From a virus: a stretch of 51,006 nucleotides of DNA. Below are positions 49,006 through 51,006 of the stretch, piece after piece. The position numbers and the translations under genes are program-made. The notes below the pieces were generated by a model. The model did not search any database and had not been told where the DNA came from. It saw only the letters and a list, made by a program, of their open reading frames with translations. The DNA is taken from the IMG/VR virus record IMGVR_UViG_3300002054_000002, positions 1 through 51,006 of that record; one strand, given 5' to 3'. Positions within the stretch are counted from its first letter, which is position 1. Each line of letters begins with the position of its first letter.

Positions 49006-49188
49006 ATGGAGATGTTATTGGATATTATCAAGGAGAACGACGGGGATAAACTAAAGACAATACTTGCCGATGAGTTCATGGTGCCGAAGGATCGCATTGT
49101 AATCAATATAAATGTTTTCTTTGACCCATTGGATGAACACCACACCTGTATCGTGTGCTACTACCAAAAGGATGAGAATGAAAACTAA
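49006..49188 (+). CDS. Small hypothetical protein
   Basis: 60-aa ORF. Confidence 0.4.
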   Translation: MEMLLDIIKENDGDKLKTILADEFMVPKDRIVININVFFDPLDEHHTCIVCYYQKDENEN

Positions 49189-50392
49189 ACTACGCCACGG
49201 GTCACTCTTCAGCGGTATTGGGGGATTTGAGCTTGCAGCCGAATGGATGGGCTGGGAGAACGTCTTCCATTGCGAGTGGAACCCTTTCGGCGCGCGAGTA
49301 TTAAAATACTACTGGCCACAATCAACAGCATATCATGACATTACAAAAACAGACTTCTCTATTCACAGAGGAAAAATCGACATCATTACAGGAGGATTCC
49401 CATGCCAACCATACTCAGGCGCAGGCAAGCGTCTCGGCAAGGACGATGACCGACACCTCTGGCCTGAAATGCTTAGAGTTATTCGGGAGGTTCAACCACG
49501 TTGGGTCGTGGGCGAAAACGTTCTCGGCCTTGTTAATTGGAACGGCGGACTGGTATTCGACGAAGTGCAAGCTGATTTGGAAGCTGAAGGGTACGTCGTA
49601 CAACCGTATGTATTACCAGCTGCAAGCGTCAACGCTCCCCACAAAAGATATCGAGTCTGGTTTGTTGCCTACGCCGATGGCACAAAGCAGGGAGACAACG
49701 AAGGAGAAGTCCGAAGAAAGGCGGAGAAAGTTTGGGGGAAAGACTACAAGGGCGATGTACTTAGAGAACTATTTGGCACTTGGGTTGTTACCGACTCCGA
49801 CGAGCTCGGATGGAACGAGGGGAGGACAACAGGTTCAGGGCAAAACGGTCAGGCGCAAAAGGAGCGGACAGCTGTTCAGCAGCAAACTGACGGACTTGGC
49901 GGTGAGTGGACTGCTTCCGACACCCGTGGCTTCCGATGCAACCACTGGGGCTATCATTGGGAAGAACGACACCTTCAGGAAAACATCGACGGGAATGCCG
50001 AGAAAGGTAAATCAGAACGGTACCGACGGCAGCGTCGGTCTAGCAAGGCTGGGCAGGCTTGGCTTGCTACCAACCCCGACGACATCGGATTACAAGGGGG
50101 CGAGGAGCAAGGAGTCGCTGGAAGCGAGCGGTCGTTCGGAGAAGAACAGCCTATCGGATACGTTTGCAGTAACTGGGAAAACTTCCCAACTCAAGCCCCA
50201 GTTTGTGATGGAGATGATGGGCTTTCCGCCCGACTGGACTTTGATTCCGTTTTTGAAGGAGTCAAGAACCCAAGAAAACCTAACATCTTCGGAAGGTGGA
50301 GAACCGAGTCAATAATGGCAGGGGGTAACGCCATTGTGCCAAAGCTAGCACTACAACTATTTGAAACCATTAATAAATACGAGTTACTATAA
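49178..50392 (+). CDS. DNA (cytosine-5)-methyltransferase, frame A
   Basis: Motifs I FSGIGG (49208-25), IV GGFPCQ (49391-408), VI ENV (49514-22), VIII APHKRYRVWFVA (49634-69) and X GNAIVP (50324-41). The middle ~190 aa are low-complexity and G/E/R/Q-rich. Confidence 0.8.
   Translation: MKTKLRHGSLFSGIGGFELAAEWMGWENVFHCEWNPFGARVLKYYWPQSTAYHDITKTDFSIHRGKIDIITGGFPCQPYSGAGKRLGKDDDRHLWPEMLRVIREVQPRWVVGENVLGLVNWNGGLVFDEVQADLEAEGYVVQPYVLPAASVNAPHKRYRVWFVAYADGTKQGDNEGEVRRKAEKVWGKDYKGDVLRELFGTWVVTDSDELGWNEGRTTGSGQNGQAQKERTAVQQQTDGLGGEWTASDTRGFRCNHWGYHWEERHLQENIDGNAEKGKSERYRRQRRSSKAGQAWLATNPDDIGLQGGEEQGVAGSERSFGEEQPIGYVCSNWENFPTQAPVCDGDDGLSARLDFDSVFEGVKNPRKPNIFGRWRTESIMAGGNAIVPKLALQLFETINKYELL
49335..50315 (+). 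CDS. 326-aa ORF nested in the +1 frame of the C5-MTase gene (frame B); GLLPTP-repeat, TRD-like protein ending in MGFPPDWT
   Basis: No stop for 326 codons. Four GLLPTPxxSD repeats lie at 49659-76, 49782-99, 49908-25 and 50061-78. A motif-IX-like QFVMEMMGFPPDWT lies at 50217-40. Its status as a separate product is unproven. Confidence 0.45.
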   Translation: MTLQKQTSLFTEEKSTSLQEDSHANHTQAQASVSARTMTDTSGLKCLELFGRFNHVGSWAKTFSALLIGTADWYSTKCKLIWKLKGTSYNRMYYQLQASTLPTKDIESGLLPTPMAQSRETTKEKSEERRRKFGGKTTRAMYLENYLALGLLPTPTSSDGTRGGQQVQGKTVRRKRSGQLFSSKLTDLAVSGLLPTPVASDATTGAIIGKNDTFRKTSTGMPRKVNQNGTDGSVGLARLGRLGLLPTPTTSDYKGARSKESLEASGRSEKNSLSDTFAVTGKTSQLKPQFVMEMMGFPPDWTLIPFLKESRTQENLTSSEGGEPSQ

Positions 50393-51006
50393 TGCAGAAC
50401 ATTCACAACATGGACTGGCGAGAGGGCATTGTCAACATTGCCGATAAGTCAGTCGACCTTGTACTGAGCGACCCTCCGTATGGTATGAGCTATCAATCGA
50501 ACATGAGAAAAAACAAACACGAGAAAATCAAGGACGACGATAACCTTGACTGGTTGCCACATTGGCTCTCCGAAATGAAAAGAGTGTGCAAGGACAATGC
50601 ACACTTGTACATATTCTGCTCGTGGCACAAGGTCGATGTGTTCAAGCAGGAGGTTGAGAAACACTTCAGGCTTAAAAATATCCTCATTTGGGAGAAAAAT
50701 AACGGGGGCATGGGAGACCTTGAGGGCGATTACGCTCCCCGGTACGAGATGGTTCTGTTCTGTTCCAATGGAGAGCGCAAGCTCAATGGGCGCAGGGACG
50801 ATAACATACTTAAAAGCCCAAAGACCCAAAATGAATACCACCCAACGGAGAAGCCCGTCGATTTGTTCTCGTACCTAATCGAGAAGAGTACCGAAGAGGG
50901 CGACCTTGTTTTGGATACGTTCGGGGGTAGTTGTGTTACAGCCGTTGCCTGCCGTCAAAAAAAGCGTCGGGCAGAAGTGTTCGAGATTGAAGAGAAGTAT
51001 TGTCAC
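50392..51006 (+). CDS. Second beta-class amino-DNA-methyltransferase (5' part; continues at nt 50..94 across the circular junction)
   Basis: TAATG junction. Motif IV LSDPPYG (50470-81), HPTEKP, and motif I VLDTFGGS. There is no stop before the window end. Confidence 0.85.
   Translation, partial: MQNIHNMDWREGIVNIADKSVDLVLSDPPYGMSYQSNMRKNKHEKIKDDDNLDWLPHWLSEMKRVCKDNAHLYIFCSWHKVDVFKQEVEKHFRLKNILIWEKNNGGMGDLEGDYAPRYEMVLFCSNGERKLNGRRDDNILKSPKTQNEYHPTEKPVDLFSYLIEKSTEEGDLVLDTFGGSCVTAVACRQKKRRAEVFEIEEKYCH
50958..51006. repeat. Second copy of the 49-bp terminal repeat
   Basis: Identical to nt 1-49. Confidence 0.95.

Follow-up and report, generated by a model that had tools for sequence, protein, structure and literature searches.

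Two conserved nested reading frames in a phage cytosine-5 methyltransferase gene and their probable reading as the subunits of one enzyme

Results

Gene layout at the locus

The window analysed here is a stretch of viral DNA of 51,006 nucleotides (nt) (IMG/VR record IMGVR_UViG_3300002054_000002, positions 1 to 51,006), near the end of which a gene for a C5 cytosine DNA methyltransferase stays open in two frames of the same strand (Table 1). Frame A encodes the protein that we call alpha, whose ATG at 49178 was assigned from homologues beginning MxHGSLFSGIGG. Frame B lies wholly inside the alpha open reading frame (ORF) and encodes a second protein, beta, which would have 289 amino acids (aa) if a second conserved ATG at 49446 is used. 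The same DNA spells GGFPCQ in A (49391-49408) and EDSHAN in B (49392-49409) and, further downstream, PVCDGDDGLSARLD in A (50198-50239) and QFVMEMMGFPPDWT in B. The second B ATG (49446-49448) arises from the alpha codons for DDDRHLW (GAT GAC).

An earlier note, made from the sequence of the window, had described both frames as stop-free over the same DNA, which we confirm, and the positions that it gave for the methyltransferase motifs, for the four LLPTP repeats of B (starting at 49662, 49785, 49911 and 50064) and for a T5 run at 50250-54 were all correct on recheck. It had also counted about ten AGG codons among the Arg codons of B and called the middle of A poor in hydrophobic residues: our recount gives AGG for 12 of 19 Arg codons in B and 2 of 28 in A, and hydrophobic residues make up 27% of the 168 residues of A from WFVA to WENFPT versus 43% of its N-terminal 180. 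Its figure of 130-140 aa for the next-longest nested alternate ORFs was too low, the actual same-strand open stretches being 165 and 152 codons; the methyltransferase overlap is still about twice as long as any other in the window.

Table 1. Features of the nested methyltransferase gene and its downstream neighbour (positions in the window; pLDDT, predicted local distance difference test).
Feature	Position	Strand	Remarks
Frame A ORF (alpha)	49178..50392	+	404 aa; open since 49112, stop at 50392
Frame B ORF (beta)	49335..50315	+	+1 frame, ATG 49335, 326 aa
Alpha catalytic N-domain	49178..49687	+	pLDDT 85-97 over residues 1-170
Alpha motif I, FSGIGG	49208-25		frame A
Alpha motif IV, GGFPCQ	49391-408		
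Alpha motif VI, ENV	49514-22		
Alpha motif VIII, HKRYRVWF	49640-63		
Alpha spacer, residues 186-345	49733..50212	+	low-complexity, predicted disordered, unconserved, stop-free
Alpha C-terminal helices with motif X	50213..50389	+	pLDDT 60-93; GNAIVP at 50324-50341 (frame A)
Beta N-terminal folded domain, residues 38-100	49446..49634	+	pLDDT 73-80, predicted small alpha/beta domain
Four LLPTP(xxSD) modules of beta	49662-76, 49785-99, 49911-25, 50064-78	+	conservation peaks of the middle
Beta motif-IX-like box, QFVMEMMGFPPDWT	50199..50240	+	shares nucleotides with alpha PVCDGDDGLSARLD
TAATG	50390..50394	+	alpha stop overlaps start of next gene
Second methyltransferase, N6/N4 type	50392 to window end	+	phrog_67 (E=6e-55), PF01555, DPPY motif

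Predicted features of alpha and beta

Alpha matches the hidden Markov models (HMMs) PF00145 (E=3e-41), TIGR00675 (E=1.5e-36) and phrog_363 (E=7e-67) and has at least 8000 homologues, named 'DNA (cytosine-5)-methyltransferase 1'. Frame A carries FSGIGG, GGFPCQ, GENV and HKRYR as C5 methyltransferase motifs I, IV, VI and VIII, the last of these within APHKRYRVWFVA (49634-69). By phmmer (E=1e-18), alpha residues 3-167 align to residues 10-173 of M.HhaI and nothing further does, and the AlphaFold model of alpha, built on an alignment of 119 sequences, matches M.HhaI in Foldseek (E=5e-13) with only about 165-175 of the 327 M.HhaI residues aligned; the PF00145 match ends at profile position 252 of 324. 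The spacer has no secondary structure in the model (pLDDT 29-39), and its column conservation is 0.16-0.37 with many gaps. Beyond it follow predicted helices (residues 353-359, 368-380 and 388-403), and W374, R375, E377, G383, N384 and A385 are invariant, the last three across the 119 homologues; motif X, with a pLDDT above 90, lies on the same chain as motifs I to VIII. Neither AlphaFold, Foldseek, Pfam nor the alignment revealed a folded target recognition domain (TRD) or small domain, or a motif IX, between motifs VIII and X of alpha. The earlier note had likewise seen no motif IX in this part of A, and an IX-like box is present only in frame B. As modelled, alpha has no folded region between VIII and X and consists of a large domain, a spacer and motif X, without small domain or motif IX.

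Between its DDGLSARLD box and motif X, alpha contains a 10-residue insertion (GVKNPRKPNI, 50258-50287) that is missing in 98% of aligned relatives. In frame B, this insertion gives a longer C-terminal tail, which runs past the stop of most homologues.

Beta matches phrog_1008, annotated 'DNA methyltransferase' (E=7e-29). Its 2314 homologues are 40-56% identical to it over about 94% of the beta sequence and contain no Pfam domain; a beta profile finds 18,858 clusters at 50% identity (E<=1e-3) among 1.84 billion representatives, and 2,104 clusters at E<=1e-30. A Met column is conserved at both 49335 and 49446, and many database members begin at the second Met; no constraint is seen on the first ~37 residues of beta, which are predicted to be disordered. 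Its model consists of several short confident modules with floppy LLPTP joints between them. The N-terminal domain is co-encoded with alpha motifs V-VIII, and the invariant positions of beta are C46, L67, G69, W73, S75, L80, W82 and R91. The LLPTP modules (49662..50078) are presumed to form the DNA-recognition part. The IX-like box (MGFPPDW) reaches a column conservation of 0.95 and lies about 28 codons upstream of motif X of alpha; it resembles the canonical form, R.L.P.E...(L/M)(Q/M)G(F/Y)P, as in M.HhaI. The resemblance to motif IX and the spacing ahead of motif X, which the earlier note had pointed out, hold at the level of the motif, without HMM support.

Conservation of both frames

Two compensating indels, introduced by sequencing or assembly, were one of three alternatives in the earlier note. 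We found nothing that supports them. An identical 404-aa protein is encoded on three independently assembled contigs of ~51 kb from different sources, and the arrangement is kept in ~160 loci and in cultured phages; the artefact is effectively refuted already, its residual probability being negligible. The three contigs, 50,987-51,076 bp long and from different assemblies, carry the same ~51-kb sequence, which appears to be a complete, circularly permuted phage genome. A megablast search with 24 kb of the window found no near match among 50,697 phage records.

The openness of B is also improbable by chance, as the earlier note had estimated. The longest +1 open run in the gene is 336 codons, whereas the longest run in 20,000 synonymous-codon shuffles had a mean of 128 and a maximum of 333 codons, and that in 20,000 codon permutations a mean of 99 and a maximum of 302; the observed run was reached by no shuffle of either kind (P<5e-5).

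As checks on its dual-frame claim, the earlier note had proposed a comparison of homologues and a search for dual-frame selection, and both speak for the claim. We compared 81 viral and 80 bacterial-genome relatives with 34-56% identity in B, the latter almost all from Bacteroidota, with Pseudarcicella hirudinis as the closest. These loci were retrieved via B, so that the openness of B is partly a selection effect, while that of A is not. The B homologue is in the +1 frame relative to an A homologue at all of them. Frame A is stop-free across the B ORF in 69 of the 81 viral and 71 of the 80 genome loci; the third frame contains 6-35 stops per locus over the same interval. From synonymous shuffles with the B protein preserved, 13.5 frame-A stops would be expected at each locus, whereas 0.14 are observed; with the A protein preserved, 5.9 frame-B stops would be expected per locus, and none is observed.

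Selection on both frames was assessed with codons threaded onto alignments of 61 distinct loci. The fourfold synonymous entropy of frame A is 1.37 bits where A stands alone (upstream of the B Met and downstream of the B stop), and falls where B is conserved, to 0.81 bits over 49335-49680 (Mann-Whitney p=3e-4) and to 0.18 bits over 50166-50250 (p=2.5e-4). Zero-entropy fourfold sites of A cluster at 49478-49620, a segment that reads WAKTFSALLIG..WYSTKCKLIWKLKGT..YYQL in B and overlies both the invariant C, W, L and R positions of B and its AlphaFold-predicted small domain. Over the motif IV region (49388-49463) the synonymous sites of A vary freely, which makes the SHANHTQ... segment of B no more than a shadow of FPCQPYS, in agreement with the disorder predicted for the first 35 residues of B. 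In the middle (49681-50165) variability peaks at the third codon position of B, and both translations align poorly except at the LLPTP peaks of B. Around 50166-50250 B is dominant, QFVMEMMGFP having a conservation of 0.95 versus 0.84 for A. The dominant frame thus runs A, B, A within one gene, about 60 codons are constrained in both frames, and both ORFs exist, are kept open and show frame-specific constraint.

These data bear on the possibility that one frame is functional and the other is open because of its composition, or because it passively mirrors the conserved one. The +1 frame is indeed inherently stop-poor, as the shuffle mean of 128 codons indicates, much of B over motif IV (SHAN from FPCQ) directly shadows A, and the motif IV overlap carries no extra synonymous constraint. 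Yet the observed run exceeds all 20,000 shuffles, the predicted stops in either frame are practically absent from loci that share only 34-56% identity, and the change of the dominant frame from A to B and back to A along the gene is not what a passive shadow would give. We consider a single functional frame very improbable.

Stop codons in motif IV of relatives

In 6 of the 81 viral loci, a 6-nt insertion inside frame-A motif IV, absent from this window, gives GGFP-stop-(P/L)-CQPYS. A scan of IMG/VR for the pattern GFP-TRR-NNN-CQP returned ~86 genuine methylase sites, at all of which TRR stands for one of the stops TAA, TAG and TGA, TGG being absent. Pattern scans yielded 8 genuine examples of a 9-nt version, including double stops such as TAA TGA CCT, and no genuine example of a 3-nt version (GFP-stop-CQ); a metagenome-assembled genome of the Rikenellaceae reads GGFP-stop-stop-PCQ. 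After dereplication, 80 distinct sequences remained (loci L001 position 4069, L028 2500, L040 2300 and L073 2569, L087-L163, L165-L176, L265-L274, and L222 position ~1500), some of whose alpha proteins are less than 55% identical to one another. Frame A is open and conserved on to motif X in 67 of the 80, and all examples also have the long nested +1 ORF.

The codon before the Cys is always YYN (CCN, CTN, TCN, TTA), with no purine at position 1 or 2: position 1 is C in 70 and T in 10 of the 80 sequences, and position 2 is C in 47 and T in 33. Although the residue that it encodes varies (Pro, Leu or Ser), YYN can always pair with the tRNA-Pro anticodon NGG through G-C or G-U. Selenocysteine, pyrrolysine and an alternative code were considered and rejected as explanations, all three stops occurring at the same site, partly as double stops. 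Judged from these sequence patterns, the motif-IV stop is a candidate for a natural translational 'stop-hop', in which peptidyl-tRNA-Pro would hop +6 or +9 nt from a CCN take-off codon over the stop to the YYN landing codon and thereby restore GGFPCQ. 'Stop-hops' have been shown with synthetic constructs, while of natural ones 'no occurrences are known' according to a 2016 review (PMC5009743). If true, this would be the first natural in-frame 'stop-hop'. An ATG equivalent to that at 49446 lies 46-52 nt downstream of the motif-IV stop in 49 of the 80 sequences, and one may speculate that termination-reinitiation could couple beta synthesis to alpha translation.

A different kind of in-frame stop was seen in contigs of Bacteroides faecalis, B. 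xylanisolvens and other Bacteroides or Phocaeicola (loci L194-L196, L208 and L219), where TGA stands at conserved Trp positions of alpha (AAE-TGA-MGW, KQ-TGA-RGKIN, FSR-TGA-R) and other Trp codons are TGG. These genes may belong to a mobile element or prophage with TGA recoded as Trp in a standard-code host, or may be decaying copies.

The phage of the window has two methylases in tandem, which in the full contig are followed by a gene for a single-stranded DNA-binding protein.

Discussion

We read the gene as a nested pair that encodes two subunits of one C5 cytosine DNA methyltransferase, with a probability of roughly 0.78. The model for this reading is M.EcoHK31I of Escherichia coli HK31 (recognition sequence YGGCCR), a two-polypeptide C5 methyltransferase with the same nested layout as here. 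Alpha would supply the S-adenosylmethionine-binding and catalytic large domain (motifs I-VIII) and the motif-X helix that completes it. Beta would be translated separately, from ATG 49335 or ATG 49446, and supply the small DNA-recognition domain, docking non-covalently on alpha. In single-chain C5 enzymes, the small DNA-recognition domain is formed by the region between motifs VIII and X; as this region has no folded counterpart in alpha, beta most likely supplies the small domain and probably carries target recognition. Independent initiation of beta and assembly of the two chains are inferred, and both have a precedent in M.EcoHK31I, for which docking of this kind has been demonstrated by experiment. 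The motif split found here, with I-VIII and X in alpha and IX in beta, is of the M.EcoHK31I kind, at the motif level only. The two-subunit model accounts for every observation and places the gene in a 'known but obscure' class.

Several points weigh against this reading. Beta has no match or model in Pfam and NCBIfam; it has no sequence match in the Protein Data Bank (PDB), even by profile, and a Foldseek search of its model against the PDB returned nothing below E=2, so that neither sequence nor fold linked it to the small domain of any methyltransferase of solved structure. AlphaFold gave a weak model of beta alone (104-sequence alignment; pLDDT 63, predicted template modelling score 0.30). 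The putative labels 'motif IX' and 'TRD' have a short motif and its position as their whole basis. The likeness to M.EcoHK31I is one of published layout, and the literature places the TRD of that enzyme in alpha, whereas here the LLPTP modules are in beta and the VIII-X region of alpha is a spacer. Finally, no Shine-Dalgarno sequence precedes either B start (49335 or 49446) in the window. Such an absence is expected for Bacteroidota; among the relatives, a convincing Shine-Dalgarno sequence for beta was found only in the Paenibacillus larvae phage Leyra (GGGAGG, 10 nt before the gp62 ATG), and it is absent or weak in the Lacticaseibacillus phage R9.2.

The missing HMM and fold links also lend some weight to the idea that beta is genuine but functionally separate, for instance a regulator, a DNA-binding protein or an anti-defence factor, alpha acting alone or being inactive. 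A further point in its favour is that the single-chain methylase of pneumococcal phage phiARI0378 has a 143-aa +1 ORF with a weakly similar N-terminus, a hint that the beta N-domain may have its own function. On the other side, alpha has neither a folded segment nor a motif IX between VIII and X and is thus unlikely to recognise DNA by itself, and the 95%-conserved MGFPPDW box sits at the position of motif IX, just upstream of motif X of alpha. PHROGs and the annotators of P. larvae phages moreover class beta as a methyltransferase, and M.EcoHK31I provides a precedent for a paired function. We regard a separate function of beta as unlikely.

The earlier note had further considered a single chain made by two programmed frameshifts, from A to B (+1) after motif VIII and from B back to A (-1) after motif IX, the product of which would be a canonical methyltransferase with motifs I-VIII, TRD, IX and X. 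By inspection of the translations, the motifs of this chimera would follow the canonical order, with IX and X plausibly spaced, and mycobacteriophage Gladiator has LPTP repeats, an IX-like box and a GNG motif X in one frame after a frame change. However, no shift-prone site is conserved: of 58 loci, only 2 have a canonical -1 heptamer in the stretch from motif IX to the B stop, and the T5 run is confined to 1, that of this window. Double frameshifting also leaves unexplained why the two segments that it would not use, roughly the first 110 codons of B and the 160 or so codons in the middle of A, are kept open (~90% of 160 loci) and why the N-terminal domain of B suppresses synonymous variation in frame A. 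In M.EcoHK31I, two separately expressed chains suffice (PMC2836561). Double recoding of this kind is thus hardly to be expected here.

The remaining alternative of the earlier note, a TRD-like protein nested in the methyltransferase gene, essentially stands: both frames are open in ~160 loci, the middle of A is unconserved and predicted to be disordered, and the codon periodicity there and around motif IX is that of B. Its description as overprinting can apply to no more than the N-terminal domain of B, where constraint is subordinate to that of alpha motifs V-VIII; the repeats and motif IX look like a small-domain region that belongs to the enzyme itself and is read in another frame. Unlike a gene overprinted de novo, B spans Bacteroidota to Firmicutes phages and dominates over A in the middle and at motif IX. 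The two-subunit reading would allow a plausible origin, in which the TRD and motif-IX segment of an ancestral single-chain enzyme came to be read in the +1 frame, and the upstream +1 frame over motifs V-VIII was then recruited as a new, probably alpha-binding, N-terminal domain of beta. C5 methylases tolerate fragment complementation (PMC3404938).

The nested layout is far more widespread than annotation shows. The earlier note was right to expect this, but its word 'unrecognised' was too strong, since records of M.EcoHK31I, of Streptococcus phages and Tn5252, and of P. larvae phages precede it. Standard gene callers report one of two same-strand overlapping ORFs, and thousands of phage and prophage methylase loci are consequently annotated with alpha only, or with a truncated alpha and a 'hypothetical protein'. 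Prediction of specificity from the sequence between motifs VIII and IX, as in REBASE, would read the disordered spacer of alpha and not the real recognition modules. The overlap, of ~330 codons, is among the longest and most widely conserved same-strand cases available in DNA phages, and the switch of the dominant frame from A to B and back to A makes the gene well suited as a natural test case for dual-coding detection methods. Natural split methyltransferases have already served as scaffolds in targeted methylation (PMC2836561), and the beta family would offer thousands of alpha/beta pairs in which repeated modules make up the recognition part. More tentatively, and with the odds somewhat against the whole of it, these genes might form a very large uncurated class (~19,000 clusters) in which beta recognises the target, ~60 codons encode two folded domains across bacterial phyla and the pair is tuned by recoding via a stop-hop.

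Comparison with known systems

The monomeric enzymes M.HhaI and M.HaeIII resemble alpha in motifs I, IV, VI and VIII and in the C-terminal motif X, and differ from it in the folded small domain and motif IX between VIII and X, which alpha lacks. Other C5 methylases are divided into consecutive chains. M.AquI is split into two polypeptides (PMC3404938), arranged sequentially; its alpha extends no further than motif VIII, and its beta contains motif X. The gp87/gp86 pair of Gladiator is also sequential and not nested: gp87 ends after motif VIII, and gp86, in the +1 frame with a 179-nt overlap with the motif VI-VIII region of gp87, combines LPTPxAxDxKG repeats and the IX-like box with motif X. 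Gladiator gp86 and window B reach 48% probability in hhalign, through the repeat motif only; we therefore dropped Gladiator-type pairs as proven homologues and treat them as analogous.

An 'apparent total overlap' of C5 methylase products in different frames was described for S. thermophilus phages of the 5093 group, pneumococcal phage MM1 and Tn5252 (McDonnell et al., PMC5601072). The overlap in phiARI0378 is probably the same one. Unlike alpha, its frame A encodes a full enzyme on one chain, TRD, IX and X included, and its +1 ORF (L085, 1646-2077) covers motifs IV-VIII without an LLPTP or IX part. The N-terminus of this ORF (MT..Q.Q.TLFEE..) resembles that of window B; with an hhalign probability of 18%, homology of the two is marginal and was not adopted. 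The ORF may be a relic, or a sign of the beta N-domain's own role. A tblastn search with a beta of the Firmicutes type found no Streptococcus phage.

Closer relatives are P. larvae phage Leyra, R9.2, Lc-Nu and Bacteroides phage BS-TP4, which belong to the same family, with alpha N-domains 43-45% identical. In Leyra-type relatives, tblastn hits cover ~90% of B (E=2e-7 to 1e-34); B is again in the +1 frame, begins upstream of motif IV and ends just before motif X. Their betas are shorter (182-234 aa) and have one to three PTP modules. Leyra gp61 (345 aa) and gp62 (234 aa, +1 frame) are both annotated as cytosine methylases, and among these relatives only the P. larvae phages have both nested ORFs annotated. 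R9.2 is minimal, with an alpha of 261 aa and a beta of ~175-182 aa with one LLPTPTASD module, and in BS-TP4 an alpha of 440 aa is annotated and the 372-codon B ORF is not. The P. larvae phage paper lists both genes and does not comment on their overlap; in the literature we found no paper on this overlap, on the scale of the phenomenon or on a curated beta family.

The nearest functional parallel is M.EcoHK31I. Its nested layout reportedly dates from 1995, and its subunits have 309 aa (alpha) and 176 aa (beta), as against 404 and 326 aa here. The gene in the window differs from it in being a phage-borne orphan beside a second methylase, with no restriction enzyme seen. In M.EcoHK31I, the whole of beta is read in another frame of alpha, from Met starts of its own, and both chains are needed for activity (PMC2836561, PMC3404938). 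When its Met codons were removed by changes that are silent for alpha, activity was lost (PMC2836561). That beta can do without its first ~42 residues (PMC2836561, PMC3404938), which match the ~37 unconstrained and disordered residues with which the beta of the window begins.

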